Assembly: GCA_963716555.1 (NCBI GenBank)
Contig: CAVQTJ010000018.1
Span: 392,413-456,412, forward strand
Direction: 5' to 3'
Length of the DNA stretch: 64,000 nucleotides
Source of the DNA: an uncultured bacterium
GTDB taxonomy: Bacteria > Chloroflexota > Dormibacteria > Aeolococcales > Aeolococcaceae
This document shows positions 1 to 19,680 of this stretch, piece after piece. Under the pieces are notes generated by a model. It had not been told where the DNA came from. It saw only the letters and a list, made by a program, of their open reading frames with translations, and did not search any database. Each line of letters starts with the position of its first letter. Position 1 is the first letter of the stretch. Position numbers and translations under genes: made by a program.

Positions 1-1277
1 CTCTCGTGGATGGCGGTTGCGTACTTCTCGCGGTCGCTGTACACCGTCGGCTCGGCGAGGCCGATCTCGTCGGTGAGCTTCGCTTTCCAGATGTCGTCGT
101 AGCGCAGGGATTCGCGTCCGTCCTGGAGGGCAAAGATGATGCCCTCGTTGATCAGGCTCTTGATCCGTGCTCCGGAATACCCCGCGGTGGCCCGGGCCAC
201 GCGGTCGATGTCGATCGGCTCGTGGGCCACGGTGTTGAGGTAGTAGGCGGCGATGTCCTTGCGCCCGGTCTCATCGGGCAGACCGACATGGATCTTGCGG
301 TCGAAGCGTCCCGGGCGCAGCAGCGCCGGGTCGAGGCTGGCCGCCCGGTTGGTGGCGCCGATGACCAGCAGGTTGGAGAGTCGCACCGCCCCGGGGCGGA
401 GATGCAGGGTGCGCCGCAGGAAGCGCCGGTGGCGGGGGAGCTGTTCGATCCCGTCGATCTGGGTGAGCAGCATGTTGACCATGCCGGCGCCGCCGCCCAT
501 GAACATTCCACCCATCATCTGGGGGTCGGTGATGCCCCGGCCGTCGATGCTGCGCTTCACCGAGACACCGCCTCGGCCCTCGCCGATCGAGTCCAGCTCA
601 TCGATGAAGATCACGCAGCCGCCCCATTTGCTGGAGAGCAGCCGCGCCTTGCGGAACATCATCTTGACCCGGAACTGGGGAATGCCCATGAACATGTTGG
701 CGAAACCGGCTCCGCTCGCGTACATGAAGGGCACCCCGGTCTCGCCGGCGATGGCCTTGGCCAGCAGGGTCTTTCCGGTGCCCGGCGGACCCTCGAAGAG
801 GATGCCGTGAGGCGGGTAGGCGCCCACTCGGCGGAACTGCTTGTAGCCCTGGAAGAGCTGCATCACCTCCTGGGTGGCGTTGACCACGTGGGGCATGCCC
901 CGGACGTCATTGAAACCGGTGCTGAACTCGCCAGGCAGGATGGTGTAGCTGACGCCCTTGCTCAGGAACCAGAAGATGGCGACGAACATCATCAGGTTGG
1001 CGCCGATCAGGAAGACGCCGTAGAGCATCAGCGGAAAGACGGTGCGCAGGATCTGGGGGAGCACCGTCCCGATGTTTCGGGTGGCGGTCCCCGGGTCGAC
1101 GCTCTGCGGGGTCGCCCCGGAGTTGGTCAGGTCGGCCCCGACCATCCAGGCCAGGAGCAGGTAGACGGCGTAGAGGATGACCAGCGCGGTGAAGGTCAGC
1201 CGCAGCGCCCGCCGGTGGCGCACCAGCGCCACCGCCAGGTTGGATCGCCGGCGGGGCGGGCTCCCAAAGCTCACGGG
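1..1277 (-). CDS. FtsH-family AAA+ zinc metalloprotease. The N-terminus is in the window and the C-terminus runs off the left edge.
   Basis: My reverse-strand translation gives a Walker A 'GILFEGPPGTGKTLLAKAIAGETGVPF', the second region 'FIDELDSIG', 'GATNRAASLDPALLRPGRFDRKI', then 'REKYATAIHE', which is the start of the HEXXH protease motif. A TM-like segment lies near a GTG start around 1277. The ORF track misses it because the frame has no stop inside the window. Confidence 0.7.
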
Positions 1278-1511
1278 TCGACTCCCAGGTGTCCGCCGGC
1301 GGGCGGCAGGCTCTGATTCACCGATGGCGCCGCAGGGCTCTCTGCTGTTGACATCGTAAGGCGTTTGCCTGCGTTGGACCAGGGACCGAGCTGGGGTATC
1401 GAGGGCAACCCGCAGTCCGGCGGCCGCAGCGCCGGCTGAGGGTGGAGGGGCCGGGACCCCGGGCCGTATTGCGGACCGCCCAGGGGTGATGGGGCGAGCC
1501 ATGATGCCCTC

Positions 1512-3182
1512 GTGCCCAAGGACAGGCGTGGCAGCGGCGGGACTCACCCGGCTCGCGGCGACACCGCACGCAGCGGAGGCCGGCTGACGTCGGCGCTCCA
1601 ATGGCGGGTGCTCCCCTCCCCCCAACGCCGCACCATCATCGGCGTGGTGGCTGGCGGCACGGGGCTGGCCGCCTCGTCGCTGATCGGCGCGGTGATTCCC
1701 AACGGCCAGCCGCTGATCACGTCGGTGGGCGACGAGGTGGTTTCGCTGACGCCGGCGGGGGTCCGGCAGGCGGCCATCGGCGTCCTCGGGACCGCCGACA
1801 AACCGGTCATCCTGCTCTCGGTCGGCGTCCTGACCCTGGTGATCGCGGGGCTGCTGGGCCTGGCCGCGCGTCACGACCGGCTGCCGCTCGCACTCGGTGG
1901 CGGAGTCATGATCGTGATCGGCCTCGCCGCCACCATCGACAGCGCCCCGGCAGCCATCCCCGCCGCGGTCCTGGCCGCAATCGGGGCGGTGATCGCCGCC
2001 GCCTGGACCGTGGAGCGGCTCAGCCGTCCCGAACCTCAGGGGGCGCCGGCCCGGCCGGAGCGGGTGCGCCGGACCCTCCACACCCCGCCCCGGTCGTGGG
2101 CCGAGAAGGAGATCACCCGCCGCCAATTTGCCCTCCTGGCCGCGGTGGTTGCCGGAGCGGCGGCGGTCGGCCAGGGCATCGCCTCGCTGATCACCTCGAT
2201 GAGCTCGACGGCGGTCCAAGCCATGCGGGCCACCATCCATCTCCCCAAGGTCGCCGACCCGCTGCCGCCAGTCCCCGCCGCCGACAGCTTCAACGTCCCC
2301 GGGCTCTCCCCCCTGGTCACCGAGAACGACAACTTCTACCGCGTCGACACCGAGTTCGTGCCCCCAGCCGTCGATGTGACCACCTGGAACCTCACCATCC
2401 AGGGGATGGTGCGCAAGCCCATCACCCTCACCTACGACCAGCTGATGAAGATTCCCCAGGTGCAGGCGGACATCACGCTCTGCTGCGTCAGCAACGACGT
2501 CGGCTCCGACCTGATCAGCAACGCCCGCTGGCAGGGTGTGCCACTCGCCAAGCTGCTGGACATGGCCGGCGTCCTCCCCGGCGCCGACCAGGTCGTCGGC
2601 ATCTCGGTGGACGGTTTCTCCGCCGGCTTTCCCACGCAGCTGGCCCTGGACGGCAGGATGGCCCTGGTGGCGGTGGGGATGAACGGCCAGCCGCTCCCCA
2701 TCGACCACGGCTTCCCCGCGCGGCTGGTGGTGCCCGGCCTCTACGGATACGTGTCCGCGACCAAGTGGCTCACCGAGATCCAGCTCACCACCCTCTCGTC
2801 CTACGACGCGTATTGGGTGCAGCGCGGCTGGGCCCAGCAGGGCGTGATCGTCACCGAGTCGCGCATCGACGTCCCCCAGGGCGGCGCGAACGTCAAGGCC
2901 GGCAGCGTGATCGTCGCCGGCGTCGCCTGGGCCCAGCACCGCGGGATCAGCGCAGTGCAGGTGCGCGTCGATTCCGGGCCCTGGCTCGATGCCCAGCTGG
3001 CGGGTGAATTGAGCATCGACACCTGGCGGCAGTGGCGCCTGGCCTGGCAGGCGACGGCGGGCACGCACACGCTCGAGGTGAGGGCCGCGGACGACACCGG
3101 CACCTTCCAGGTCTCCCGGTTCACCTACCCGTTCCCTGGGGGTGCGACCGGTTACGACCAGATCCAGGTGACCGTGGCCTGA
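1512..3182 (+). CDS. Molybdopterin-dependent oxidoreductase of the sulfite-oxidase / MsrP-YedY family, with an N-terminal multi-TM membrane domain and a Tat-like 'RRTII' motif.
   Basis: 556-aa ORF. The N-terminal 170 aa are hydrophobic and Ala/Gly-rich with twin-arginine 'RRTIIGVVAGG'. The C-terminal half carries motifs typical of the sulfite oxidase family, including 'DITLCCVSN' with a Mo-ligand Cys, 'GFPARLVVPGLYGYVSATKWLTEIQ' and a C-terminal dimerisation-like beta region. Confidence 0.7.
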   Translation: MPKDRRGSGGTHPARGDTARSGGRLTSALQWRVLPSPQRRTIIGVVAGGTGLAASSLIGAVIPNGQPLITSVGDEVVSLTPAGVRQAAIGVLGTADKPVILLSVGVLTLVIAGLLGLAARHDRLPLALGGGVMIVIGLAATIDSAPAAIPAAVLAAIGAVIAAAWTVERLSRPEPQGAPARPERVRRTLHTPPRSWAEKEITRRQFALLAAVVAGAAAVGQGIASLITSMSSTAVQAMRATIHLPKVADPLPPVPAADSFNVPGLSPLVTENDNFYRVDTEFVPPAVDVTTWNLTIQGMVRKPITLTYDQLMKIPQVQADITLCCVSNDVGSDLISNARWQGVPLAKLLDMAGVLPGADQVVGISVDGFSAGFPTQLALDGRMALVAVGMNGQPLPIDHGFPARLVVPGLYGYVSATKWLTEIQLTTLSSYDAYWVQRGWAQQGVIVTESRIDVPQGGANVKAGSVIVAGVAWAQHRGISAVQVRVDSGPWLDAQLAGELSIDTWRQWRLAWQATAGTHTLEVRAADDTGTFQVSRFTYPFPGGATGYDQIQVTVA

Positions 3183-3189
3183 GGACCGG

Positions 3190-3216
3190 GGCCCCGCAGC
3201 GACGCCTGCGGCGGGC
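3190..3216 (+). terminator. GC-rich hairpin (CCGCAG...CTGCGG) directly after the Mo-oxidoreductase stop codon. It has no U-tract.
   Basis: Perfect 6-bp inverted repeat flanking a short loop, 8 bp after the TGA at 3180-3182. Confidence 0.3.
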
Positions 3217-3238
3217 ACACCTGTGTCCCAGGCCGCCC

Positions 3239-3278
3239 GAATACACGAATACGCGAATACGCGAATACACGAATACGT
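3239..3278. repeat. Tandem 8-bp repeat (CGAATACR) x5 in the gap between the Mo-oxidoreductase and sqr.
   Basis: Read directly: CGAATACA CGAATACG CGAATACG CGAATACA CGAATACG. It is relatively AT-rich compared with the ~70% GC surroundings. Confidence 0.9.
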
Positions 3279-3435
3279 GCCCAGGAAGCAACTCCCTCGG
3301 CCCCCCAACCGGGTGCCACCCGCGAGCACGGCGGCCGGGCACCCCGGGGGCACCTTCCGCAGGGTCGAACGGCGGCCGGAGCGGGGCGATCCGGCCCTGG
3401 CGGGTTCACCGCGCTGATGCCATCGTCAAAGGGCG

Positions 3436-4683
3436 ATGAGCGGCCACCAGCAGGTTCTGATCCTCGGTGGCGGCACCGGGGGGACGGTCACCGCCAACCG
3501 CCTGCGCCGGGTACTGCCAGAGTCGATCGGCATCACCGTGGTCGACGGCAATGACGATCACGTCTATCAGCCGGGCCTGCTCTTCGTCCCCTTCGGGTTG
3601 ACCGAGGGCCACGACCTGGTGCGCCCGCGCGGCGAGCAGCTGCACCACGGCATCGATTACCTGCAGGGCACGGTCGAGAGTGTGGACGTGCGCGCCAACC
3701 GAGTTCATTTCGAGGGCGGTCGGACCGCGGCGTACGACGTGCTGGTGGTCGCCACCGGCGCGGTGCTCATGCCCGGGGAGACCGAGGGCCTCGACGGTCC
3801 GGGCTGGGGGAGCAAGGTGTTCACCTTCTACTCCCTGGAGGGAGCGCGCGCCCTCCAGGCCGCGCTGGCCCGGTTCAGCGCCGGCCGGATCGTCGTCAAC
3901 GTCGTCGACATGCCCATCAAGTGCCCGGTGGCCCCGCTCGAGTTCTGCTTCCTTGCCGACTGGTTCTTCCACGAGAAGGGCACCCGCGCCGATGTGGAGC
4001 TCACCTACGTCACGCCTCTCGACGGCGCCTTCACCAAGCCGGTCGCCGCCCAGCGGCTGGGGGAGCTCCTGGCCAAGAAGGGGGTGAAGGTCGTCACCGA
4101 GTTCAACACCGGGAGCGTCGACGGTGAGGCCGGGGAGCTGACGTCATACGACGGCCGGGTCGTGCCCTTCGACCTCGCGGTGGTGGTGCCGCTCCACGCT
4201 GGTGCCGAGTTTGTCAGCCGCTCCCCGGGTCTCGGCGACGAGCTGAACTTCATCCCCACCGACGAGCACACCCTCCAGTCCGCGGCGGCAGCCAACATCT
4301 TCGCCATCGGTGATGCCGCCGGGCTCCCGGTGTCGAAGGCCGGATCGGTGACCCACTTCGAGAGCGAAGTGCTGGCTGAGAACATCCGGCGATTTCTCGC
4401 CGGTGAGGAGCTGGACGCCGGCTATGACGGCCACGCCAACTGCTTCATCGAGACCGGTTTCGGCAAAGCGGTGCTCATCGATTTCAACTATGACACCGAG
4501 CCCTTGCCAGGACACTTCCCCACCCGACTTGGGCTCCCTTTGTTGAAGGAATCCCACCTCAACCATCTCGGCAAGCTGATGTTCCAGTGGTTCTACTGGC
4601 ACGCTCTGCTGCCGGGACGTTCGCTTCCCGGGGTCACGTCCGAGATGCCGACGGCCGGGAAGCACACCGTCGCTGTGTCCTGA
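3436..4683 (+). CDS. sqr: Sulfide:quinone oxidoreductase-like FAD-dependent pyridine nucleotide-disulfide oxidoreductase.
   Basis: 415 aa. N-terminal FAD-binding 'VLILGGGTGGTVTANRL', the redox-active Cys motif 'CPVAPLEFC', and a second Rossmann-like region. Length and architecture fit SQR-type flavoproteins, and the sulfur-relay genes sit immediately downstream. Confidence 0.65.
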   Translation: MSGHQQVLILGGGTGGTVTANRLRRVLPESIGITVVDGNDDHVYQPGLLFVPFGLTEGHDLVRPRGEQLHHGIDYLQGTVESVDVRANRVHFEGGRTAAYDVLVVATGAVLMPGETEGLDGPGWGSKVFTFYSLEGARALQAALARFSAGRIVVNVVDMPIKCPVAPLEFCFLADWFFHEKGTRADVELTYVTPLDGAFTKPVAAQRLGELLAKKGVKVVTEFNTGSVDGEAGELTSYDGRVVPFDLAVVVPLHAGAEFVSRSPGLGDELNFIPTDEHTLQSAAAANIFAIGDAAGLPVSKAGSVTHFESEVLAENIRRFLAGEELDAGYDGHANCFIETGFGKAVLIDFNYDTEPLPGHFPTRLGLPLLKESHLNHLGKLMFQWFYWHALLPGRSLPGVTSEMPTAGKHTVAVS

Positions 4684-4687
4684 GGAG

Positions 4688-5011
4688 ATGATCATGGCAG
4701 TTGCCGGCATCCGTGTCGCTGACGTGGCGCGCAATGACGAGGGCTTCTTCGTGGACCCGTCGCAGTGGTCCGAGGAGATGGTGCCCGACCTCGCTGCCGA
4801 GGAGGGCATCGGGGAGTTGACCGAGCGCCATTGGCAGGTCATCCGCTTCATGCGCCGCGAGTACCTGGAGAAGGGAGCCGGACCGACGGTCCGGGTTCTC
4901 GGCAAGACCTCCGGCGTGGCCATCAAAGAGCTGTACGAGCTGTTTCCCAAGGGTCCGGCCAAGGTCGCCGCACGCATCGCCGGTATCCCCAAGCCGCGCG
5001 GCTGCATCTGA
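4688..5011 (+). CDS. TusE/DsrC-family sulfur-relay protein. It has a single C-terminal Cys, so it is TusE-like rather than a bona fide DsrC.
   Basis: 107 aa ending '...GIPKPRGCI', the hallmark flexible C-terminal arm of the DsrC/TusE family. Only one Cys lies near the C-terminus. Confidence 0.75.
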   Translation: MIMAVAGIRVADVARNDEGFFVDPSQWSEEMVPDLAAEEGIGELTERHWQVIRFMRREYLEKGAGPTVRVLGKTSGVAIKELYELFPKGPAKVAARIAGIPKPRGCI

Positions 5012-5027
5012 TGAGGAGAACCTGACC

Positions 5028-5540
5028 ATGGCCACCATGACCATCGAGGCCAAAGTTGCTGCCAAGGAATTCATGCCGGCGACCATCGAGAAGGTGTCGA
5101 TCATCATCTCCAAGGGCTCCCTGGATGGCGTCTACCCGGGTCTGATCATGGCCAACGGCGCCCGCGCCGAGGGTATCGAGGCCAATCTCTTCTTCACCTT
5201 CTTCGGGCTCGACGCCATCCACAAGGCACGGCACGAGCACATCAAGATCGCCACCGTGGGAAACCCGGGGCTGCACCTCTCCACCTGGCTCGGCGGCATT
5301 CCCGGCATGTCGAGCGTGATGACCCATTACCTGTCGTCGAAGATGGAGAAGCTCGACATCCCCTCGATTCCCGAGTTCGTCGAGATGATCGCCGACACCG
5401 GTTGCGGGCTCTACGCCTGCAGGGCGTCGGTGGACCTGTTCGGGCTGACCAGGGAGGACTTCATCCCCCAGGTTCAGGACATCATCACCGTCGGCGAGTT
5501 CTACGAGAAGGCGGCGGGCGGGCAGATCATCTTCACGTGA
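5028..5540 (+). CDS. DsrE/DsrF-like sulfur-relay (persulfide carrier) family protein.
   Basis: 170 aa, about the size of DsrE/DsrF proteins. It has a Cys-containing 'IADTGCGLYAC' region and sits between the TusE-like and OsmC genes with 16-bp and 8-bp gaps. Confidence 0.55.
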   Translation: MATMTIEAKVAAKEFMPATIEKVSIIISKGSLDGVYPGLIMANGARAEGIEANLFFTFFGLDAIHKARHEHIKIATVGNPGLHLSTWLGGIPGMSSVMTHYLSSKMEKLDIPSIPEFVEMIADTGCGLYACRASVDLFGLTREDFIPQVQDIITVGEFYEKAAGGQIIFT

Positions 5541-5547
5541 GCGCAGC

Positions 5548-5994
5548 ATGGAGCTGACCGTCGACAGCCTGGGTGGCGACCGCCATCGGATCCGGGTGCG
5601 CGGCCACGAGCTGATCGTTGACCAGCCGCGGGAGTCCGGGGGCGAGGATGCCGGACCGACTCCGGTGGATCTCTTCGTCGCCTCCCTGGCCGCGTGCGTC
5701 GCCCACTACGCGCGTCGCGGTCTCGGCCGTGGTGGTGCGGGACCGGGGGTGCGCTGCAGCTGGGCGATGAGCGAGGAACCGCCCTGGCGGGTCGCGGCGA
5801 TCAGCGTGGAGGTCATGCTTCCGCCGGGGACGACCGAGCAACGCGTGGCCGCTGTCCGCAGGGCCGTGGCCCACTGCACGGTGCGGGCCTCGCTGGCCGA
5901 TCCGCCGTCGGTATCGGTTCGCACCGCGGTCGCGCCCAACTCCCGGCCGGCAGGGATCCCTCAGCCCGCTGCCGCCAGACCGTCCGCGGTCTGA
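5548..5994 (+). CDS. OsmC/Ohr-family protein (peroxiredoxin-like thiol enzyme).
   Basis: 'PVDLFVASLAACVAHYA' is the classic OsmC active-site Cys region. The true C-terminus may be shorter than the ORF-track end. Confidence 0.6.
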   Translation: MELTVDSLGGDRHRIRVRGHELIVDQPRESGGEDAGPTPVDLFVASLAACVAHYARRGLGRGGAGPGVRCSWAMSEEPPWRVAAISVEVMLPPGTTEQRVAAVRRAVAHCTVRASLADPPSVSVRTAVAPNSRPAGIPQPAAARPSAV

Positions 5995-6118
5995 GCCGCT
6001 CAGGGCGGCGCCAGCACCCGCCGGTTGCGGGGTGCCACCCGCTCACCGTCGCCGGACCGTGACTCACGCCGAAGCCCCAACCCGATAAGCTTCATGAACC
6101 TAACAATCAGGAGACTTC

Positions 6119-6592
6119 ATGACAGCCCACGCCTCCTCCCCGGGCCGGGCCATACCCCGGGCGGAATTGCTGGAGCGCCTGATCGCGGTTCAGGGGCCGC
6201 TGCGGCAGCGCTTTCGGGCCACCTTCCCTGCCGAGGCCAGGGCCCGGCTGCAGGAGGCCATGGAGCAGGTGACCGCTCCCCAGGTCGAGGCTCTGATGTT
6301 GCTGCGGGAGCATCCCGCGGGGTTGAGCATGCACGAGCTGGCCGCGGCGCAGGGTTCGACACCGAGCTCGGCCACCCAGATGGTGGACCGATTGATCCGC
6401 CTGGGGATGGTGGAGCGCCTCCGCGAGCAGGGCGACCGCCGAGTGGTCCGCGTCCAGCTCTCGGCGTCGTCGCTGGAGCGCTTCCAGGAAGTGATGGTGG
6501 CCCGGGTGCGCGCCGTGGAGGGGGTCACCACCTCGCTCAGCGATGGTGAGCTGGAGACCCTGGTCGGGTTGCTGGAGAAGCTGGCCAGGTGA
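6119..6592 (+). CDS. MarR-family transcriptional regulator.
   Basis: 157 aa with a winged-HTH region 'LSMHELAAAQGSTPSSATQMVDRLIRLGMVERLREQGDRRVVRVQLSASS'. Its stop overlaps the start of the MMPL gene (GTGA). Confidence 0.8.
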   Translation: MTAHASSPGRAIPRAELLERLIAVQGPLRQRFRATFPAEARARLQEAMEQVTAPQVEALMLLREHPAGLSMHELAAAQGSTPSSATQMVDRLIRLGMVERLREQGDRRVVRVQLSASSLERFQEVMVARVRAVEGVTTSLSDGELETLVGLLEKLAR

Positions 6593-8925
6593 GCCGCCTC
6601 TTCTCCCTCCTCGGCCGCTTCGATGTCCGCTTCCGCTACCCGATCGTCCTGGTATGGGTGGTGGTCACCATCCTCTGCGTTCGTGCCCTTCCCGGCCTCT
6701 CCTCGGTCAGCCAGAATGGCGAGAGCAGCTTCCTGCCCAGCAGCGCCCCGAGCGAGCAGGCTGCTCAGCTGCTCAATCCATTCCAGCAATCCGGGCTCGC
6801 CACCGCGACCCTGGTGGTCGCGCGTGGTGGGGAGCAGCTGACCACCGCGGACCAGTCAGCGATCACCCGGCTCACCGCCACAGTCCGCCGCACCACCAAC
6901 GTGGTGAGCGTGCGATCGCTCGGGGTATCCCAGGACGGCGAGGCACTGCAGCTTCAGATCCAGGCCAGCGTCCCCCCCGAGAACGGCAGCGGCGCCGGCG
7001 CGACCCTGGTCGACGCCATCCGCGGCGAGGCCGCCGGCCTGGGTGCTCCGTCCGGTCTGCAGATCCACCTGACCGGGGAGCTGCCCACCGCGGTCGACAC
7101 CCAGGCCGGCTCGGCGAGCTCTTTCAGCGCCACCCAGCGGCTTTCGATCGTGTTCATCATCCTGCTGCTCCTGCTGGCGTTCCGCTCGCTGCTCGCGCCG
7201 TTGGTGACCCTGCTCCCGGCCGCGATCGTCCTGGCCCTCGCGGGTCCGGTGATCACCCTCTTTTCCCATGTGGGGGTGCAGGTCTCCGCGATCACCCAGC
7301 TGCTCCTGGTGGTGTTGGTGCTGGGCGCCGGCACCGACTACGGGCTCTTCCTGGTCTTTCGAGTTCGTGAGGAGATCCGCCGCGGGCTCGCGCCCCGGGA
7401 TGCCGTGGTCCGGGCGGTGGAGACGGTGGGGGAGTCGATCACCTTCTCGGCGCTCATCGTCATCGGCGCGCTGATCAGCCTGCTCATCGCCCAGTTCGGC
7501 ATCTACCAGGGTCTGGGCCCGGCGCTGGCCATCGGCGTGGCCCTGATGCTGCTGGCCGGGCTCACCCTCCTCCCGGCGCTGCTCGCCATCCTCGGGCGGG
7601 CCGTCTTCTGGCCGAGCCGGCTCACGGTTCGGAGCTCCCCCACCAGCGGGTGGTGGGGTCGGGTTGCGGCAGCGTTCATCCGCCGCCCCGGGGTCACCGC
7701 CATCTGCGGACTGCTGATCTTTGCAGCCCTTGCCGTGGGTTCTGTGGGGACCTCGACCGCCGGCTTCGCCGACCAGACCGCCGGACCCTCCGGCAGCGAT
7801 TCGGCGGCCGGCCAGGCCGTCCTGGCCCAGCACTTCCCCACCACCGGAGCCGCGACCTCCACCGCCGCCGTGATGCGCTTCCCCTCCCCGGTGTGGGACG
7901 ACCCCGAAGCGCTCACCGCGGCTCAGCAAGCGCTGCAGGGCTCGAGCGCGCTGACCTCGGTCACCGGGCCGCTGGACCCCGATGGTCCGTCCGAGCCCAC
8001 GTTCACCGCCAGCCAGCTGGCCGAGCTGCATCAGCTGCTGGGCTGGCCGGTCAGCCCCGCCGACCTCACCGCCGCAGCTGCGCGACTGGCGGGAAGCTTT
8101 CCACCCGCGGCGGTGCGAACCGTGGCCCAGGAGTACGCCGCGCTGGTCCGGTATCTGAGCCCTGACGGGAGGACCGTGCAGTGGTCGGTGGCGCCGGCGG
8201 TCGGTCCTCCGGGGAGCGCGGTCGCCACCGCCAACGTGCCGGCGCTGCGCGGAGCGGTCGCCGCCGCCGCGGCTCGCGCCGGGGCCACGAGCAGCGGGAT
8301 CTTCAGCCTCGACGGCTTTGCCTACGACGTGTCCAACATCTCCCAGAACGATCTGGTCCACGTGATTCCCACCGTGGCCGTGATCATCGCCATCCTGCTG
8401 GCGATCGTCCTGCGCAGCGCGGTGGCGCCGCTCTTCCTGGTTCCCAGCGTGGTCCTCTCCTACCTGGCGGCGCTGGGGTTGACGGCTCTGGTCTTCGTGC
8501 ACATCGGGGGACAGAGCGGAGTCGACTTCATCCTCCCCTTCCTGATGTTCGTCTTTCTGATGGCGCTCGGCTCCGACTACAACGTGCTGGTGATGACCCG
8601 GATTCGCGAGGAGAGCCACCGGCTGTCCTTGCGGCGGGCGGTCATCGCCGCCATCGGCGCCACCGGGAGCACGGTGACCACCGCGGGCCTGGTCCTGGGC
8701 GGCACCTTCGGGGTGCTCGGCTGGGCCGCGGGCAGCTCGGCCGGCGCCAGCCAGGTCCAGCAGGTGGCCTTCGGGATCGCCGCCGGGATCCTGATGGACA
8801 CCTTCTTCGTGCGGACCATCGTCGTCCCCGCGGTGGTCGTGCTGGTGGGGAGGTGGACCTGGTGGCCCTCGCGGCTGGCCGTGGCCACCGCCCCGACGGA
8901 GGCTCCTGAGCAAGCCGTCGCCTGA
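6589..8925 (+). CDS. MMPL-family (RND superfamily) membrane transporter.
   Basis: 778 aa. Two blocks of about six TM helices separated by soluble domains. The first TM block contains the conserved 'GAGTDYGLFLVFR' and the second contains 'ALGSDYNVLVMTRIRE', both MMPL hallmarks. Confidence 0.8.
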   Translation: MSRLFSLLGRFDVRFRYPIVLVWVVVTILCVRALPGLSSVSQNGESSFLPSSAPSEQAAQLLNPFQQSGLATATLVVARGGEQLTTADQSAITRLTATVRRTTNVVSVRSLGVSQDGEALQLQIQASVPPENGSGAGATLVDAIRGEAAGLGAPSGLQIHLTGELPTAVDTQAGSASSFSATQRLSIVFIILLLLLAFRSLLAPLVTLLPAAIVLALAGPVITLFSHVGVQVSAITQLLLVVLVLGAGTDYGLFLVFRVREEIRRGLAPRDAVVRAVETVGESITFSALIVIGALISLLIAQFGIYQGLGPALAIGVALMLLAGLTLLPALLAILGRAVFWPSRLTVRSSPTSGWWGRVAAAFIRRPGVTAICGLLIFAALAVGSVGTSTAGFADQTAGPSGSDSAAGQAVLAQHFPTTGAATSTAAVMRFPSPVWDDPEALTAAQQALQGSSALTSVTGPLDPDGPSEPTFTASQLAELHQLLGWPVSPADLTAAAARLAGSFPPAAVRTVAQEYAALVRYLSPDGRTVQWSVAPAVGPPGSAVATANVPALRGAVAAAAARAGATSSGIFSLDGFAYDVSNISQNDLVHVIPTVAVIIAILLAIVLRSAVAPLFLVPSVVLSYLAALGLTALVFVHIGGQSGVDFILPFLMFVFLMALGSDYNVLVMTRIREESHRLSLRRAVIAAIGATGSTVTTAGLVLGGTFGVLGWAAGSSAGASQVQQVAFGIAAGILMDTFFVRTIVVPAVVVLVGRWTWWPSRLAVATAPTEAPEQAVA

Positions 8926-8992
8926 GCCGGCTCGGGGTTGAGCCGCCGCTGCGGCCGGCCCGGGTCGCGGGCCCGCTCAGACCCCGCGAGGA

Positions 8993-9343
8993 TCAGCGGG
9001 GACCGCTGACGGCTGAGGCGCGGTGTCGAGCGACAGCTCGTAGTTGAAGGCGCAGTAGCTCCAGCGTCACCGAGCCCAGCACCCGGCCCGACTCCACCGC
9101 CACCAGGACGGCGGTGCGGCCTGACCGCCCGGCGACGTCGGCGATCCTGGTGAGATAGCCGTCCTCATCGCGGTCGCCGTACAGGGCGGCGTAGCCGGCT
9201 CGGGTGGCCCGGCCCGCCGCCAGCTCCTCCTCGGGACGGACCGCTCGGACCTCGACGCCCCCGGGGGCCGCTTCGCTGCCCAGAGCCGCGGCCGGGTCCG
9301 GCGACTCGCCCTCGAAATTGGGGCGTGCGGCGGTGCCGATCAT
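8993..9343 (-). CDS. Hypothetical protein, possibly a truncated or frameshifted GNAT acetyltransferase.
   Basis: 116-aa ORF. 'TAVLVAVESGRVLGSVTLEL' resembles a GNAT beta-strand core, but the expected C-terminal continuation is in another frame. Weak. Confidence 0.25.
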   Translation of the reverse strand: MIGTAARPNFEGESPDPAAALGSEAAPGGVEVRAVRPEEELAAGRATRAGYAALYGDRDEDGYLTRIADVAGRSGRTAVLVAVESGRVLGSVTLELLRLQLRAVARHRASAVSGPR

Positions 9344-9747
9344 TCCAGCGGCTTCAGCTCCAGTGCCGCGGAGTTGATGCAGTAGCGCTGGCCCGTGGGC
9401 TGGGGCCCGTCATCGAAGACGTGGCCCAAGTGGCTGCCGCAGTTGCGACAGACCACCTCGGTGCGCACCGTCCCGTGGCTGCGGTCGGGACGCAGCTCGA
9501 CAGCCTCCAGGTCGGCGGGTTCGAAGAAGCTGGGCCAGCCGGTGCCGGAGTCGAACTTGGTCTCGGAGCTGAACAGCTCCGTTCCGCATCCGGCGCAGTG
9601 ATAGGCGCCGGTCTCGTGGCTCTTCCAGTACTTCCCGGTGAAGGCGGGCTCAGTATCGCTCCGACGCAGGATCGCGTATTGCTCGGGGGTGAGCCGGGAT
9701 CTCCATTCGGCATCGCTCATGCTCAGGTGGCGAGTTGTCTCAGTCAT
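9340..9747 (-). CDS. msrB: Peptide-methionine (R)-S-oxide reductase MsrB.
   Basis: 135 aa. Two CxxC pairs ('HCAGCG' and 'RNCGSHLGHVF') and 'GWPSF' are canonical MsrB/SelR motifs. Confidence 0.9.
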   Translation of the reverse strand: MTETTRHLSMSDAEWRSRLTPEQYAILRRSDTEPAFTGKYWKSHETGAYHCAGCGTELFSSETKFDSGTGWPSFFEPADLEAVELRPDRSHGTVRTEVVCRNCGSHLGHVFDDGPQPTGQRYCINSAALELKPLE

Positions 9748-9775
9748 TTGCGGCTCCTCGAAGACTGGCCTGATA

Positions 9776-9794
9776 CCAGCCTAGCTGAGGCTGG
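9776..9794. promoter_or_regulatory. Perfect 7-bp inverted repeat CCAGCCT-agctg-AGGCTGG about 30 bp upstream of the msrB start. Candidate operator.
   Basis: Seen directly in the sequence. Its position relative to the msrB start on the minus strand places it in the promoter region. Confidence 0.3.
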
Positions 9795-10270
9795 GGCACC
9801 GCCGCGGCCGTGCTGTGACGTGGATGGGAGCCGTGCATGGCCCGCGCCGAGTGTTGCGTCGTTCGCTTCGAACGTTACGGAACCTCCATCGTCAACACAA
9901 CACGGATGTGACGGGACCCCCCATATCTGTCACTCCACACCGACGGGAGCGGTCGAACCGCGCAATGGTGGGGCACCATGGGCCCACGGCGGACCTGGTC
10001 GCCTGACCTCCAACCACGGCACGCAAGGGAAGCGCATGACCTGGAAGGCCTCTGCTCGGGGATCCGGGACTGGCTTGATCGGCAAGCTGGCCCAGGCGAA
10101 CATCGACGAGGTTGCACCCGTCGACGACGAGGTGATCGTCGTTCGCGACGACGACCCGGGATCGGCACCGCTGCGCCAGCGTCTCGCTGCCACCACCCTG
10201 CTTCGAGTTCAGAGAGGTCACCTGCCTCGAGGATCTCACCGGGCTGATCGAGCCCGGTCGGGCCCGGGCG

Positions 10271-11803
10271 GTGGCACTGTGCCGGCGCGGCCTCTCACTC
10301 GCGGACCTTCACGAGACGGTGGCCGCCACCCGAGCCCTCTGCCCGGGGATCGCGCTGGTGGTGCTGGACGACCAGGGCGGTGCCAGCCGCGAGGCAGTCG
10401 CCGCGCACGCGGGTGCCGATGCCCTGGTGAGCCTCGCCGAGGATTGGAAGGCGGTGGGCGAAGCCGTCCTGGAGGCCGCCCAGCGTCGGGCTCGCACCCG
10501 GGCGATCGACGACGTTCTCCTCCCGGCACCCGATCGGGAGCTGCTCGGCTCGCTGGATTCCCTCTGGCCACTGGCGGTGCTGGTGTTGAAGTTGGAGAAC
10601 CTGAAGACCCTCGCGGGCCGTCATGCCAACGGCGACGTCAGCAGCCTGCTGATGCCGGTGGCGGCGCTCTTTCGCACCCTGCTGCGGCCGAGCGACGTGA
10701 TGGCACGCACCGCTGACGACTGCTTGCTCATCGCCCGCCAGGACGCGGATGAGCTGGCGGTCGCCGCGCTCGCCGACCGTCTGCTGCGCAGCTGCCGGCA
10801 GCCGATTCCCATCGGTGGGGAGGGCGCCGAGGGGGTGCAGATCACCATGGGCATCGGAATCGCCATCCGGGGCCGCCGCGAGGACGATCCCGCGACCTCT
10901 CCGGCCGCTCTCCTGGAGGCCGCGCGCGTCGCCCTGGTGCGGGCGCAGGGGCGGGGTGGCTACGAGCTCGCGGACCGCGATCTCCAGGCGCGGGTGACCG
11001 CTCAGCGCCGCACCGAGGTCGCGCTCCGCCACGCCCTCGACAATCACGAGTTCCGGGTCTTCTACCAGCCGGTCGTGGAGCTGAGCGGCGGAGGGCTGGG
11101 CTCCTTCGAGGCGCTGATGCGCTGGCAGCGTCCGCAGGTGGGGCTGTTCGACGCCGGCTCCTTCGTGGGGGCGGCGCAGCGGAGCGGGCTGATGACCCGG
11201 ATCGGCCAGACCATCCTCCAGGAGGCGGCAGCGGAGGCGGCCGGGTGGGCCGGCCCCGACGCCATCCCGCCCGCGCTGTCGGTCAACCTGTCGCCCCAGG
11301 AGTACTTCATGCCCACGCTGATGCCGAGCGTGGGCAGGATCCTCAGCGAGGTCGGTCTGCAGGCCGACCGCCTGATCCTCGAGGTCCCCTTCCGGCTGCT
11401 CTCGCAGGACCCGCGCTCGGCTCGGAGCATCCTCCGCGACCTCGCCTCGCTGGGCGTCACCCTCCTCGCCGACGACTACGACGGCGATCTGACCGACGAA
11501 GTCCGCCACCTTCCCATTCGCATGGTCAAACTGCGGATGGGACTGCTGGATCAGATCGAGCGCGCGGCCGAGCGCCGGACCCACGTCGCCGCCATGGTCG
11601 CCCAGGTCCATGCCGCCGGCTGGCTCTCGGTCGGCAAGGGGGTGGAGACCCCCACCCAGGCGGCGATTCTCCGCGACCTCGGCTGCCAGGGCGGGCAGGG
11701 CTTCCTCTTCAGCGGCGCGCGCCCCGCCGAGGAGCTGGCCCTGTTCCGCAGCCCCGCCGGGGTGTGGGCCTGGAGCCCGAGGGCTCGCAGCCAGCCTGCG
11801 TAG
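10271..11803 (+). CDS. c-di-GMP phosphodiesterase with a degenerate GGDEF domain and an EAL domain. It has an N-terminal receiver-like region and the true start may lie upstream.
   Basis: The GGDEF position reads 'RTADDCLLIA', which is degenerate. The EAL domain keeps 'FRVFYQPVVEL', 'FEALMRW', 'DDYDGDL' and 'QGGQGFLF'. A REC-like alpha/beta pattern is present N-terminally, and the upstream ORF piece 10036-10200 in another frame may belong to it. Confidence 0.75.
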   Translation: MALCRRGLSLADLHETVAATRALCPGIALVVLDDQGGASREAVAAHAGADALVSLAEDWKAVGEAVLEAAQRRARTRAIDDVLLPAPDRELLGSLDSLWPLAVLVLKLENLKTLAGRHANGDVSSLLMPVAALFRTLLRPSDVMARTADDCLLIARQDADELAVAALADRLLRSCRQPIPIGGEGAEGVQITMGIGIAIRGRREDDPATSPAALLEAARVALVRAQGRGGYELADRDLQARVTAQRRTEVALRHALDNHEFRVFYQPVVELSGGGLGSFEALMRWQRPQVGLFDAGSFVGAAQRSGLMTRIGQTILQEAAAEAAGWAGPDAIPPALSVNLSPQEYFMPTLMPSVGRILSEVGLQADRLILEVPFRLLSQDPRSARSILRDLASLGVTLLADDYDGDLTDEVRHLPIRMVKLRMGLLDQIERAAERRTHVAAMVAQVHAAGWLSVGKGVETPTQAAILRDLGCQGGQGFLFSGARPAEELALFRSPAGVWAWSPRARSQPA

Positions 11804-11978
11804 TGAAGCCAGGCGAGGCGGGCCAGACGACGACTTTCCTCTACCAGGTGTTGAACTCCGCCTCGCCGGGTTGGGCGGGGTTTGAGTTGGTTGGGCGGGC
11901 GTCCCGAGGGGGATACAACCCCTCTCAGCACCCCATCAAGATCTGTTGATGACCGCCCTGGAGCCATGGTCCTGGCCT

Positions 11979-12264
11979 GTCAGGCCAGCTGGCCGTCCAG
12001 TGCAGCGATCCGGATGACATTGTCGACGGCTCCCGCCACCAGAAACCACGCTCGGTTCGTCCGGACCCCGATGTAGCGGAGCTTGCGGCCGCCGCCGAGG
12101 GTCTTCAGCCAGCCAAAGGGCCCGTCGATCCGCTTGCGGATGCGCTGGCTGACCAGGTGCCCGGCATGGCGGGTTGTCCGTCCATCGATCGCACTCTGGC
12201 GGTGGCTGGTGTTAGGAGCGACGTGCGGGGTGATCCGCAGCTCGCGGCAGCCGGCGACGAACCC
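11979..12264 (-). pseudogene. Remnant C-terminal ~95 codons of an IS5/IS1182-like DDE transposase.
   Basis: Reverse translation: '...RIDGPFGWLKTLGGGRKLRYIGVRTNRAWFLVAGAVDNVIRIAALDGQLA*'. It matches the conserved C-terminus of IS5-group transposases (FxWLK...RxLxxRYE...W...AAYNLxRL). There is no upstream catalytic domain and a stop lies immediately 5'. Confidence 0.6.
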
Positions 12265-12293
12265 CCTGGTTTACCGGTTGAGACCGGCCCCAG

Positions 12294-13607
12294 CTACCCC
12301 GCGTAGGTCGCGGTGGGGGAGGTGCCGCCGGACAGGTCGAGGGCGGTGCAGCCCGTGGACGTGGCCACGACCACCCCGAACCTGTCGCCATTGGTCAGCC
12401 CGTTCCAGTACACGGTCACCACGTCGCCATTCTGGGTCACATCCACCGGGGTGCTCGACGGGTCGGAGAGTGAGCTCCACGCCGGAGCCGACCAGCTGCG
12501 CAGCCCGCCATACCAGTCGCCACCCTCCCAACCGGCCACCAGCTGCACCGTGCCGGCACGGTCGATGGGCGATCCTGAGGTCGGGGCGGTGGCGCTGTAG
12601 GGAAGCACGGCGGTGATCAGCGTGACCGACGGGGTGCTCGGCCTCACCGGGCTGGCCAGGGTGATCGAGACATAGGGGGTTCCGAACCCGGTCGCCGGGT
12701 CGGTGCCGATGCCACTCGCGGTGGAGGTGATCGAAAGGCTGGAGGGGACCTGGCCGGTGGGGATGGAGCTGCAGCTCTCGGCTGCGGCGAACAGCGTCGG
12801 CAGGGGCCCCACGGTGGCGACGCTGGAGGGAGGTGGGGTCGGGGCCGGAGTTGGTGCCGCCGGGCCGGCGGTGGGGCCGGGGCCGAGGAAGTAGTGAGCC
12901 GCCACCACCGCGACGGCCACGATCAAGCCGGTGACCAGCAGGGCGGCGATGCCCGCCGCCACTGCCAGGCCGCTGCCCGGAGGGCGGCGCGGAGGTTCGC
13001 CGTCCCCCGCCGGGCGCGGGGGGAGGGGGACGGGGGGCTCGGCCCAGGGGTGCTCCTCCACGACCGGCGGTGCCGGCGGTTGGAAGGCGGGTGGGGCGTC
13101 ATGTGCGGCCTGGTCCGGAAAGCCGGTGGCGCCCCGATCCCACCGGTCGGCGCCGGCGGAGGCGCCCCGATCCCACTGGTCCGAGAGGGGAGCGCCCCCA
13201 TCGCCGCCGGCATAACCCTCCACCGCCGGGGCATGACCCTCCAGAGCCGGATCCGATCCCCGGATCAACCCCTCCATGGGAACGACCGGAGACCCAAACC
13301 TCAGCCGGGCGTCGGCAATGGCCGCCGCCACATCGTCGCGCGATGGCTCGCCGAGGGCCCAGGCCAGCTCGGGGTGGTCGGCGAAGTAGCGCAGCCCGAT
13401 CGAGTACTGGCGGTGCGCGGGGGTGACGTCGCCGATCGCCCCGGGATCCGGGGCGTCCCGTGCCGCCAGTCCTCCGTAGTCCGGACGCCACCGTCCCAGC
13501 GCATCATCCAGCCCGCTCAGCCCGCGCAGGAACTGGAGCAGGTGATGATGCCCCGCCGGATCGGCGGTCCCGGTGGTCGCGCTGTCGTCGATCGCCACGC
13601 TGTGCAC
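12294..13607 (-). CDS. Hypothetical bitopic membrane protein with a cytoplasmic N-domain, one TM helix, a Pro/Thr/Ala-rich linker and a ~140-aa extracytoplasmic C-domain.
   Basis: 437 aa. TM 'LAVAAGIAALLVTGLIVAVAVVAAHYFL'. The linker reads 'PTAGPAAPTPAPTPPPSS'. There is an internal direct DNA repeat encoding 'GAPLSDQWDRGASAG / ADRWDRGATGF'. Confidence 0.5.
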   Translation of the reverse strand: MHSVAIDDSATTGTADPAGHHHLLQFLRGLSGLDDALGRWRPDYGGLAARDAPDPGAIGDVTPAHRQYSIGLRYFADHPELAWALGEPSRDDVAAAIADARLRFGSPVVPMEGLIRGSDPALEGHAPAVEGYAGGDGGAPLSDQWDRGASAGADRWDRGATGFPDQAAHDAPPAFQPPAPPVVEEHPWAEPPVPLPPRPAGDGEPPRRPPGSGLAVAAGIAALLVTGLIVAVAVVAAHYFLGPGPTAGPAAPTPAPTPPPSSVATVGPLPTLFAAAESCSSIPTGQVPSSLSITSTASGIGTDPATGFGTPYVSITLASPVRPSTPSVTLITAVLPYSATAPTSGSPIDRAGTVQLVAGWEGGDWYGGLRSWSAPAWSSLSDPSSTPVDVTQNGDVVTVYWNGLTNGDRFGVVVATSTGCTALDLSGGTSPTATYAG

Positions 13608-13692
13608 CCCTGGCGCGGTGGCCCCAGATCACGCAGGGCCGCTGTCAGGGCCCGATGATGCCCCACGCGAGGCGCAGTGTGGGGGTCTCCGG

Positions 13693-14295
13693 TCAGCGGG
13701 GAGGCTGGCCGTCCCTGACGCTGTAACCGACCGGCTGGGCCGCCTTGGGTTTGTCGAGGGCGTTGCCCGCGTAGCCGGCGAACACCCCGCCCAAGCGGCG
13801 TCCGGTCAGCTCCCGCTGGTGCTGGAGGCGGAAGGCCCAGCGCACCTGGTTGAGCAGCAGCAGGCCGATGGCTCCGCCGGCCAGGCCGAGCGGCAGCGCC
13901 GCGAGGGTGGCTCCCACCGCCAGGGCGCTGGCCCAGACCAGGATCCCCACCGATTCGATGAGGATCACCAGGAAGCGCGCCGGCCGCACCCGGTCGGCGA
14001 GCCGGTACACCAGGTACATCTCGATCGCCGACAGCCCGGCGATGACCATCAGCGCCATCCCGCTGGTGAGTCCCAGAGCCCCCAGCGGCACCACCAGCAC
14101 ATGGGTCGCATCCAGCCTGAAGCTCACCGTCGGCAACCGCTGCGGCAGGAAGCTCACCATCACCAGGACGCTCATGATCCTGATCACCAGGAACCACTGG
14201 CAGGTGGCGATGGCGGTGTGCACCCGGCGGTCGACCGCCTCGGCGCGCGCCACGGCCTCGGCCGCTCCCAGGTCAGACCCGCCCAGGTACGTCAT
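13693..14295 (-). CDS. Hypothetical integral membrane protein with at least four predicted TM helices.
   Basis: 200-aa ORF with good hydrophobic periodicity and Arg-rich cytoplasmic loops. Confidence 0.45.
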   Translation of the reverse strand: MTYLGGSDLGAAEAVARAEAVDRRVHTAIATCQWFLVIRIMSVLVMVSFLPQRLPTVSFRLDATHVLVVPLGALGLTSGMALMVIAGLSAIEMYLVYRLADRVRPARFLVILIESVGILVWASALAVGATLAALPLGLAGGAIGLLLLNQVRWAFRLQHQRELTGRRLGGVFAGYAGNALDKPKAAQPVGYSVRDGQPPR

Positions 14296-14417
14296 CTGGA
14301 TGCCACGTTAGCCAGCCGATCGTGACCGGCTGTGGCGGCCCGGTAACACAAGGGAAACATCGCACCGATCACACCGTCAGCCCCAACCAGACCGTTACCG
14401 GCGGCCTTCGAGAACCC

Positions 14418-14936: not shown

Positions 14937-15037
14937 TGCCCGATGATGCTAGCGTGGTCACGATGCCGGCCCCTGCCAGCAACTCGAGGCCTCCACGCCG
15001 ACCCGGGGGGTGGGCGGGGGGCTGGCCCCCCGCCTGA

Positions 15038-15742: not shown

Positions 15743-15751
15743 TACAATTAC

Positions 15752-15764
15752 GGTCAATCTGACC
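15752..15764. promoter_or_regulatory. Perfect palindrome GGTCA-ATC-TGACC (extended imperfectly to TTAcGGTCAatcTGACCtaAA) between nrtR and pncBA. Candidate NrtR operator.
   Basis: Seen directly. It lies 10 bp after the nrtR stop and about 25 bp before the pncB start, and overlaps the expected promoter/RBS region. Confidence 0.45.
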
Positions 15765-15788
15765 TAAACCGCGGAGGCACCCTCCATC

Positions 15789-19655: not shown

Positions 19656-19680
19656 AGCATCATGATGCCATACTACGAAG

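Follow-up and report, generated by a model that had tools for sequence, protein, structure and literature searches.

Does a gene for a membrane-anchored molybdoenzyme of the sulfite oxidase (SUOX) fold take part in sulfide oxidation when it is located directly upstream of a sulfide:quinone oxidoreductase (SQR) gene and a row of genes for small thiol proteins? The question is raised by positions 1512-5994 of a 64-kb stretch of high-GC DNA (GC ~70%; the whole stretch is called the window in the following), where the original prediction had read five co-directional genes as one self-contained module that converts H2S to sulfate, with the molybdoenzyme at its end. All five plus-strand open reading frames (ORFs) were found, and the five family assignments were upheld by Pfam and NCBIfam: the SUOX-fold molybdoenzyme (1512-3182, 556 residues; PF00174, 148 bits), a type III SQR (3436-4683, 415 residues; NF049943, 555 bits, cutoff 525), a carrier of the DsrC/TusE family (4688-5011, 107 residues), a soluble DsrE2-like carrier (5028-5540, 170 residues) and a two-Cys protein of the OsmC family (5548-5994, 148 residues; PF02566, 43 bits). 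The small gaps that had been ascribed to the whole row were recovered for its last four genes (4 nt between the SQR and DsrC-like genes, 16 nt between the two carrier genes and 7 nt between the DsrE2-like and OsmC genes) and not for its first two, as 253 nt separate the molybdoenzyme gene from the SQR gene; the tight packing is thus limited to the genes from SQR to OsmC. We consider it likely that 3436-5994 constitutes a four-gene cassette for the handling of sulfide and sulfane sulfur, whose carriers would relay the sulfur, and that the molybdoenzyme stands outside this pathway.

The flavoprotein encoded at 3436-4683 is a predicted type III SQR. The match to the NCBIfam model NF049943 covers residues 6-410 of 415 and reaches 555.2 bits, an FAD-binding Rossmann motif (FAD, flavin adenine dinucleotide; GGGTGG, residues 11-16) is present at the N-terminus, and the closest solved structure is that of human SQOR (8dhk; E 7e-41, full-length alignment). 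The two redox cysteines, Cys163 (PIKCPVAP) and Cys336 (GHANCF), align with the catalytic motifs PVKCAGAP and DGYTSCP of the human enzyme (8dhk/6oi5), and C163, C171 and C336 are invariant in 24 SQR homologues that are 71-100% identical. The models for coenzyme A disulfide reductase (CoADR) and other disulfide reductases yielded partial matches only, all hundreds of bits short of the cutoffs and in the case of CoADR at least 500 bits below. The identification as SQR therefore holds, with the type III model passed and both catalytic cysteines aligned to human SQOR, and a grouping with disulfide reductases other than SQR, which had been put forward as an observation that would contradict it, was not found. 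The full name of NF049943 reads 'type III SQR, selenoprotein subtype', and the OsmC protein of the window weakly matches the model 'OsmC-related (seleno)protein' (37 bits, cutoff 95). Sec-containing (selenocysteine-containing) relatives of this SQR clade apparently exist; the SQR and OsmC genes of the window encode Cys throughout and contain no in-frame TGA.

The second gene of the cassette (4688-5011, with a likelier start at the ATG at 4694, 7 nt after GGAG) encodes a protein that scores above the cutoffs of both TIGR03342 (96 bits, cutoff 53.5) and PF04358 (114 bits, cutoff 24.9) and that has, with its tail PKPRGCI and the penultimate Cys106, the features of the TusE/DsrC/DsvC superfamily. 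Its closest solved proteins are true DsrC proteins of sulfate reducers (2xsj_C, E 3e-23), and the E. coli-type TusE-like sulfurtransferase 7syb is matched at only E 1e-6. DsrC sensu stricto is characterized by two C-terminal cysteines, CysA in the penultimate position and CysB 10 residues upstream. The CysB position is occupied by Ala in the alignment of the carrier with 2xsj_C and 2v4j_C, and the protein is therefore not a DsrC in the strict sense. Among 79 orthologues 99% retain Cys106, the sole Cys column in their alignment, which bears out the single cysteine that had been predicted for this carrier. A tusBCD partner is not found adjacent to the gene; the partner is a single DsrE2-like gene. 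Judged from these comparisons the 107-residue protein is best called a single-Cys DsrC-like protein, closer to DsrC than to TusE. It would be able to hold a persulfide and, because CysB is absent, it cannot run the trisulfide/disulfide cycle of the two-Cys DsrC proteins. Also borne out was the view that a carrier of the TusE type replaces TusA beside SQR, since a DsrC/TusE-family protein occupies the place that TusA has in other lineages.

The third gene (5028-5540) encodes a protein of the broader family PF13686 (110 bits, cutoff 25) that has neither a transmembrane (TM) segment nor a signal peptide, the latter being absent from the DsrC-like carrier as well. Its Cys131, located in a YAC motif, aligns with a cysteine of 2qs7 and of 3pnx ('putative sulfurtransferase DsrE') and is kept in 99% of 77 orthologues. 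In the OsmC protein encoded by the fourth gene (5548-5994), Cys50 and Cys110 are invariant in the 8 sequences compared.

The conservation of the gene order was analyzed in relatives. The GTDB collection was scanned with the SQR alignment (one genome per species), which resulted in at least 596 confirmed matches, and the best 80 of these loci were fetched with 10-kb flanks, after which their six-frame ORFs were searched with the window proteins. The 80 loci derive from Dormibacterota, Acidimicrobiia, Streptomyces and other Actinomycetes, Thermoleophilia/Gaiellales, and one metagenome-assembled genome labelled delta proteobacterium. The triad SQR, DsrC-like, DsrE2-like was found in this order and on one strand in 76 of the 80 loci, with two phyla represented, the other 4 being contig ends. 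Counted by gene, the DsrC-like gene lies directly 3' of SQR in 78 loci and the DsrE2-like gene is the third gene in 76, and the median spacing between the aligned segments is 52 and 39 nt, respectively. The OsmC gene, which is the fourth cassette gene in Dormibacterota, is a recurrent, not a universal, partner of the triad: it lies downstream of the DsrE2-like gene in loci L001, L003-L005 and L083, ~1.8 kb beyond that gene in L055, and divergently upstream of SQR in the Streptomyces loci L044, L052 and L058. In these three Streptomyces loci the intergenic region shared by OsmC and SQR contains a CsoR-type box (see below) at -67 from SQR, and OsmC and the triad may be co-regulated there. The reading of the five genes as one module thus did not hold: the triad is conserved in 76 of the 80 loci, OsmC is linked to it in about eight, and the molybdoenzyme gene is adjacent in the lineage of the window only.

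The identity between the SQRs of different phyla amounts to 64-78%, which is consistent with horizontal spread. Close plasmid-borne relatives were not found; a search of the plasmid collection yielded distant relatives only (<38% identity), and these SQR-like genes, from plasmids of haloarchaea and Chloroflexota, adjoin TusA. The other Dormibacterota loci (L003-L005) carry a gene for a universal stress protein directly 5' of the SQR cassette; such a gene is also present upstream of TusA-SQR on a Halobaculum plasmid (L087). Within the clade of several hundred species the presence of a DsrC-like protein instead of TusA is universal, and the arrangement is a new variant of the known SQR/sulfur-carrier operons; in the searchable literature we found no published description of an SQR-DsrC-like-DsrE2-like operon in Actinobacteria or Dormibacterota.

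The neighbouring ORFs of the 80 SQR loci were clustered and the cluster representatives were scanned with Pfam. A gene for a CsoR-family repressor was recovered in 18 of the loci, with two cysteines 29 residues apart and no His at the copper-ligand position, by which the encoded proteins are predicted to be of the CstR/ScCsoR pattern. The other recurrent neighbours included: DUF302 proteins (11 loci), CoADR-rhodanese fusions (8), double-rhodanese proteins with a metallo-beta-lactamase (MBL) fold (CstB-like, i.e. persulfide dioxygenase (PDO)-rhodanese; 7), thioredoxin (6, recognized by reading the sequence), TauE (5) and ArsR-type regulators (5). The box TACCC-N4-GGGTA occurs at most 400 nt upstream of SQR in 24 of the 80 loci, in seven Streptomyces loci at exactly -67, and its density in the 400 nt upstream of SQR is 0.82/kb, as compared to 0.028/kb in the rest of the 1.36 Mb (~30-fold); many of the sites outside the SQR upstream regions precede CsoR-family genes. 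The box agrees with ATACCn6GGTAT, which experiments have defined as the site of ScCsoR, a sulfane-sulfur-sensing repressor of Streptomyces coelicolor (PMC7533328). Taken together, the box or a CsoR-family regulator gene is present in 34 of the 80 loci, which supports a role of the triad in sulfide/sulfane-sulfur handling; the association gives good, be it indirect, support for a triad that would respond to sulfide or sulfane sulfur in Actinomycetota.

At the other Dormibacterota loci neither the box nor the regulator was found. Downstream of the cassette in the window lies a gene for a MarR protein (6119-6592, plus strand; Pfam MarR), which was considered as a sulfane-sulfur sensor and rejected: it contains no Cys, its gene overlaps that of an MMPL transporter (6589-8925, plus strand; Pfam MMPL), and it is absent from L083. 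A scan of 1200-6700 for promoter and terminator consensus sequences retrieved nothing, the consensus probably being uninformative in this phylum, and an Rfam scan of 1-12000 (E<=1) retrieved no RNA families, so that no riboswitch or leader is indicated in the 253-nt spacer between the molybdoenzyme and SQR genes.

The association of the molybdoenzyme with the cassette was inspected from both sides. Among the 80 SQR loci a homologue of the molybdoenzyme gene occurs within 10 kb in one (L020, 9.5 kb away). In the reverse test, 80 metagenome loci centred on homologues of the molybdoenzyme (L089-L168, 581 kb) were searched, and DsrC-like, DsrE2-like, OsmC, TauE and CstR-like ORFs were found in none of them and an SQR-family ORF in one. 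Two related contigs show how the adjacency in the window came about. In the first, a related Dormibacterota contig (L084, molybdoenzyme 67% identical), the gene order is FtsH (minus strand), molybdoenzyme (plus), GNAT acetyltransferase (minus), MsrB (minus) and GGDEF-EAL, followed further on by redoxin, NrtR and NAPRTase, and no SQR cassette is present. In a blastn comparison with this contig, 1-3183 and 9057-16741 of the window align and 3184-9056 has no counterpart. The window has the same backbone, with FtsH upstream of the molybdoenzyme gene on the minus strand, a small ORF (8993-9343, minus strand; no Pfam match) that is syntenic with the GNAT acetyltransferase of both contigs, and MsrB (9343-9780, minus strand). 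In the second contig, from a closer relative (L083, SQR 87% identical), the order is molybdoenzyme, a 487-residue protein, SQR-DsrC-like-DsrE2-OsmC, GNAT and MsrB, without the MarR-MMPL pair. The spacer that follows the stop codon of the molybdoenzyme gene in L084 (TGAGCGACTCGCCGCGGCGCGGGGTCGCACAGGCTGG...) is found after the OsmC stop codon in L083, and its first 19 nt follow the stop codon of the MMPL gene in the window. Because the backbone of L084 is uninterrupted and its spacer recurs after OsmC in L083 and after MMPL in the window, the cassette and the MarR-MMPL pair are insertions into one ancestral spacer 3' of the molybdoenzyme gene. MarR-MMPL (6119-8925), located between OsmC and GNAT/MsrB and absent from both contigs, is the second, lineage-specific one. 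The GC content of the cassette is 0.63-0.67, versus 0.70-0.73 in its flanks. The molybdoenzyme gene is thus a backbone gene and in all likelihood no part of the sulfur pathway.

Boundaries of the att or IS type were not recovered, in that no direct or inverted repeats flank the inserted segment. The segment 3176-3334 of the spacer between the molybdoenzyme and SQR genes was found in this lineage only, and the spacer stretch 3176-3340 has no other copy in the window. It contains an AT-richer 8-bp tandem repeat (3238-3276; CGAATACR x 4.9, TRF score 64) located 160-200 nt upstream of SQR, of which the same five units, with two substitutions, are present in a second assembly (L001) and which is absent from L083, L084 and L003-L005; it might serve as a site for a regulator or be the scar of an insertion. 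The 487-residue protein of L083 (2035-3498 of that contig) has multiple TM segments with several His-containing helices, no Pfam or NCBIfam match and no counterpart in the window. The molybdoenzyme gene of the same contig (231-1804) was called as two overlapping ORFs of 357 and 167 residues, which points to a frameshift/pseudogene or else to an error of the assembly; if the split is real, the cassette works there without the molybdoenzyme.

What the molybdoenzyme does can be approached from its sequence and its neighbours. Its scores fall far below the cutoffs of the equivalogs for sulfite dehydrogenases (SorA 121 bits, cutoff 600; SoxC 115, cutoff 420; SorT 67, cutoff 570) and below that for MsrP (NF003767; 52 bits, cutoff 207), and the best match among solved structures is SorA (2blf, E 2e-24). 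With SorA, SoxC and SorT it shares the fold, the Mo-ligand cysteine (C325, Cys104 in SorA), the equivalent of Arg55 (R277) and a homologous C-terminal immunoglobulin (Ig)-like domain that follows the Mo domain; it differs from them in scoring 5-8 times below the equivalog cutoffs, in its membrane anchor and in the absence of an adjacent gene for a cytochrome partner. Three of the four pocket residues of SorA are lost: His57 is replaced by D279 and Tyr236 by W440, columns that are marked in the alignment by the mutant entries 2ca4 (H57A) and 2c9x (Y236F), and Arg109 falls in a 7-residue deletion. D279, W440, C325, R203, R204 and F206 show no variation among 26 homologues. An MsrQ haem-b partner or domain, which an MsrP would have, is not indicated either, as the family has no conserved TM histidines. 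The enzyme is thus, as far as these alignments tell, nearer to the sulfite dehydrogenases than to MsrP and without their substrate pocket. The possibility that it is an MsrP-type enzyme without a link to sulfur, which had been named as a ground for abandoning the proposed pathway, was accordingly confirmed in its second part only, since the sequence is closer to SorA than to MsrP and the genetic context shows no sulfur link.

The multi-TM anchor and the twin-arginine motif that had been noted at the N-terminus are present: the hydropathy profile shows four hydrophobic segments, T-R-R-Q-F-A-L at 202-208 and a fifth segment. Contrary to what had been claimed, they are not unusual, since the same layout was found in 26 of the 26 homologues sampled from more than 7,900, of which the full-length ones are 500-560 residues long. 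A similar architecture is known from Sco3746, which has TM domains (TMDs) at 39-61, 99-121, 139-161, 173-194 and 223-242, and of which the first four are inserted independently of the twin-arginine translocation (Tat) system (probably via Sec), the Mo domain being exported by Tat via TMD5 (Tooke et al. 2017, PMC5449189). The TM segments of the window protein lie in nearly the same places, at ~41-63, 91-121, 122-146, 142-171 and 205-230, with the twin arginine directly before TMD5 and the SUOX-fold domain at the C-terminus. Because of this shared layout of five TM segments and a twin arginine, the Mo domain is predicted to be exported, by Sec and Tat together. The likeness noted here is one of architecture. 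It does not extend to the haem site: homologues of Sco3746 have conserved TM histidines that were proposed to bind haem b (PMC5449189), whereas no histidine is invariant in the TM region of the 26 homologues of the window protein.

The genes that do recur beside the molybdoenzyme family are of a different kind. A divergent gene for a sigma factor of the extracytoplasmic function (ECF) type is present in 17 of the 80 loci and one for an RskA-type zf-HC2 anti-sigma-K factor in 14, a fasciclin-domain protein is encoded directly downstream (-7 to +17 nt) in 8-9, and a convergent SseA-like double rhodanese lies ~1 kb downstream in 7. These neighbours suggest, for the family, a putative role in the envelope or in a SigK-type regulon rather than in sulfur metabolism. 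In three Dormibacterota contigs the small ORF at 8993-9343 or its GNAT equivalent and MsrB are the conserved neighbours of the molybdoenzyme gene, which hints faintly at a link between the exported enzyme and oxidative protein damage.

We then searched for the remaining steps of a route from H2S to sulfate. In the annotated parts of the 64-kb window no genes were found for a persulfide dioxygenase, a rhodanese, TauE or the biosynthesis of the molybdenum cofactor. A tblastn search of the window with the CstR-like, TauE, CoADR-rhodanese, PDO-rhodanese, ArsR and DUF302 proteins retrieved a single match, of 29% identity, at 19735-20304. It belongs to the sole MBL-fold gene of the window, which encodes a protein of 222 residues (19666-20331; GloB-like (glyoxalase II), below the cutoff) and is located 14 kb from the cassette. 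The 29% identity is to the MBL domain of the PDO-rhodanese proteins encoded near SQR in Streptomyces; the protein is a possible, though by no means certain, persulfide dioxygenase. No candidate for an enzyme that converts persulfide to sulfite was recovered in the annotated window parts. A self-contained route that ends at the molybdoenzyme is not supported because no enzyme for this step was found there, the molybdoenzyme being moreover unlinked to SQR loci and devoid of the SorA pocket.

In the mechanism that we propose for the four-gene cassette, the type III SQR would oxidize H2S on Cys163/Cys336 and pass the electrons via FAD to the membrane quinone pool, and the sulfane sulfur would be captured as a Cys persulfide by the DsrE2-like (Cys131) and DsrC-like (Cys106) carriers, which would hand it to acceptors encoded elsewhere. 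OsmC would serve as a thiol-based accessory, probably in the reduction of hydroperoxides or of per/polysulfides. Of this picture, the analysis shows the identities of the genes, the catalytic residues, the conservation of the operon, the association with regulator and operator in relatives, and the insertion. In which direction and order the sulfur moves, what OsmC does, where the sulfur ends up and on which side of the membrane the SQR acts are inferred, and the missing signal peptide does not settle the orientation of the SQR. The transfer step between the DsrE2-like and DsrC-like proteins is proposed because of the sulfur relays from DsrEFH to DsrC in Allochromatium vinosum and from TusBCD to TusE in E. 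coli. Common to both and to the cassette is the pairing of a DsrE-family protein with a partner from the DsrC/TusE family that has its persulfide on the penultimate Cys. The relays differ from it in that the cassette has a single DsrE2-like (PF13686) subunit instead of a heterohexamer, no DsrAB/DsrMK or MnmA, and no CysB. More specifically, and tentatively, the type III SQR might load the sulfane sulfur directly onto the DsrC-like/DsrE2-like pair, without release of polysulfide or use of a small thiol, under control of the CsoR type in Actinomycetota. This more specific reading, which is possible though we would not bet on it, concerns a clade of at least about 600 species-level genomes in Actinomycetota and Dormibacterota and, if true, would make DsrC-family proteins the physiological acceptors of an SQR, a role apart from dissimilatory sulfite reductase and from tRNA thiolation.

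Several observations weigh against a cassette for sulfide/sulfane-sulfur handling. The type III assignment comes from one curated hidden Markov model, and the clade as a whole is known from sequence alone; the DsrC-like carrier does not reach the TusE equivalog (NF008562; 77 bits, cutoff 191), nor does the DsrE2-like protein reach the DsrE2 equivalog (NF047629; 90 bits, cutoff 210). TusA, PDO, rhodanese and TauE are all missing from the window operon, and neither a CsoR box nor a CstR or SqrR gene was found in the window. We know of no SQR for which a direct transfer to a protein carrier has been shown. The cassette furthermore adjoins the molybdoenzyme gene in two related genomes (the window and L083), so that a lineage-specific functional link is at least conceivable.

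That last point leads to the five-gene pathway, in which the persulfide made by SQR would be passed via the carriers to sulfite and the molybdoenzyme would oxidize the latter to sulfate. The five genes are adjacent and co-directional, the arrangement is repeated in L083, the best family and structure matches of the molybdoenzyme are sulfite dehydrogenases (SorA, SoxC, 2blf), and the SseA-like rhodanese genes near 7 of the 80 molybdoenzyme homologues would fit as well. However, the gap of 253 nt, the retention of the molybdoenzyme gene in the FtsH...MsrB backbone of L084 without the cassette, and the virtual lack of mutual linkage (1 of 80 SQR loci; carriers, OsmC, TauE and CstR in 0 of 80 molybdoenzyme loci) separate the enzyme from the cassette, and the split gene in L083 points in the same direction. 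Its scores against SorA, SoxC and SorT are far under the cutoffs, with Asp and Trp invariant at the positions of His57 and Tyr236 and Arg109 lost, and no persulfide-to-sulfite enzyme or sulfite exporter was found in the annotated window parts. In addition, the Mo domain is predicted to be exported (by the precedent in PMC5449189), whereas the carriers have no signal peptides. We regard the five-gene pathway as very improbable.

A device for sulfur trafficking or assimilation, in which the SQR would feed the carriers for the synthesis of thio-cofactors or thiolated molecules or for persulfidation signalling, would fit the strength at which the carriers are conserved, which equals that of SQR, and the lack of PDO or rhodanese in the operon at most loci; the DsrC/TusE and DsrE/TusD families serve in a biosynthetic relay in E. 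coli. The CsoR-type repressors and boxes, together with the PDO-rhodanese and CoADR-rhodanese proteins and TauE of a subset of the loci, form, however, a signature of stress-responsive removal of sulfide/sulfane sulfur (PMC7533328; PMC9918477). As the carrier moreover resembles DsrC more than TusE and has no gene for a thiolation enzyme next to it, we regard such a device as unlikely. Hardly credible, finally, is a flavoprotein that runs in the reverse direction, as a quinol- or NAD(P)H-linked reductase of carrier-bound persulfide or polysulfide. The Pyr_redox_2 superfamily does include CoA-persulfide and polysulfide reductases, weak NCBIfam matches to CoADR were obtained, and OsmC and thioredoxin genes are present at some loci; against this stand the full-length match above the cutoff of the SQR model, the alignment of both SQR-specific cysteines with human SQOR, the partial nature of the CoADR matches (at least 500 bits below the cutoff) and the lack of a match to a second nucleotide-binding motif. 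The four-gene cassette for sulfide/sulfane-sulfur handling is the reading we retain.

The nearest described arrangement is the operon sqr(type III)-tusA-dsrE2 of Methylacidiphilum fumariolicum SolV (MFUM_v2_0219-21), which is induced by H2S and for whose SQR a role in sulfide detoxification, with zero-valent sulfur as the product, was proposed (PMC10205796). It likewise consists of a type III SQR, a small carrier and a DsrE2-type protein. The cassette described here differs in that the middle gene is of the DsrC/TusE family and not TusA, in that OsmC is appended, and in that its hosts are Dormibacterota and Actinomycetota; it is known from genes alone. The cst operon of Staphylococcus aureus (cstR; cstA-cstB-sqr) and the yrk/sqr-pdo genes of Bacillus licheniformis combine SQR, DsrE/TusA carriers, PDO and a CstR-type sensor (PMC9918477). 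As in these systems, an SQR is co-encoded with DsrE-type carriers, and relatives of the window share the regulator, the box, PDO-rhodanese and TauE in subsets of the loci. The two systems differ in their type II SQR, TusA, rhodanese domains (fused in CstA) and the constant presence of PDO, none of which is found in the window operon, nor is CstR. An SQR that is co-operonic with persulfide-carrier proteins is hence what the window has in common with them, and the combination of TusA with PDO/rhodanese is not. The ScCsoR circuit of Streptomyces coelicolor regulates pdo, tauE and rhod, and its description mentions no SQR-carrier operon (PMC7533328). The same type of operator was found 67 nt upstream of SQR in the seven Streptomyces loci, and genes for two-Cys CsoR-family proteins near many of the Actinomycetota loci, whereas the window is without the box.

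The remainder of the window contains functions of another nature. The region 15038-17726 encodes a NUDIX-NrtR regulator followed by a 653-residue fusion of nicotinate phosphoribosyltransferase and an isochorismatase (nicotinamidase-like) domain, and looks like an NAD-salvage unit. A large polysaccharide-synthesis region, unrelated to the cassette, extends over 31699-59125 and includes glycosyltransferases, a WecG/TagA-GT2 fusion, a sugar transferase and a flippase, with a LuxR-AAA-TPR regulator and an ECF-type sigma factor interspersed. The annotated parts also contain a subtilase and apparent PIN-type toxin-antitoxin ORFs, as read from their sequences.

For the annotation of genomes the locus holds a caution: adjacency in a single genome is not a pathway, and the 'sulfite oxidase' beside the SQR belongs to a common family of exported molybdoenzymes, whose recurrent neighbours are the ECF sigma/anti-sigma-K pair and fasciclin proteins and not sulfur genes. 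The physiological acceptor of the sulfane sulfur produced by SQR is debated, and of the SQR classes type III has received the least study. An SQR gene that is nearly always followed by genes for DsrC-like and DsrE2-like carriers points to a candidate acceptor system made of proteins, one that can be tested. The arrangement occurs in Dormibacterota as well as in soil Actinomycetota such as Streptomyces, in many cases preceded by the operator of a persulfide sensor, and as several of the organisms that have the operon are cultured Streptomyces, genetics is feasible. It also takes the DsrC family outside the realm of dissimilatory sulfur metabolism.

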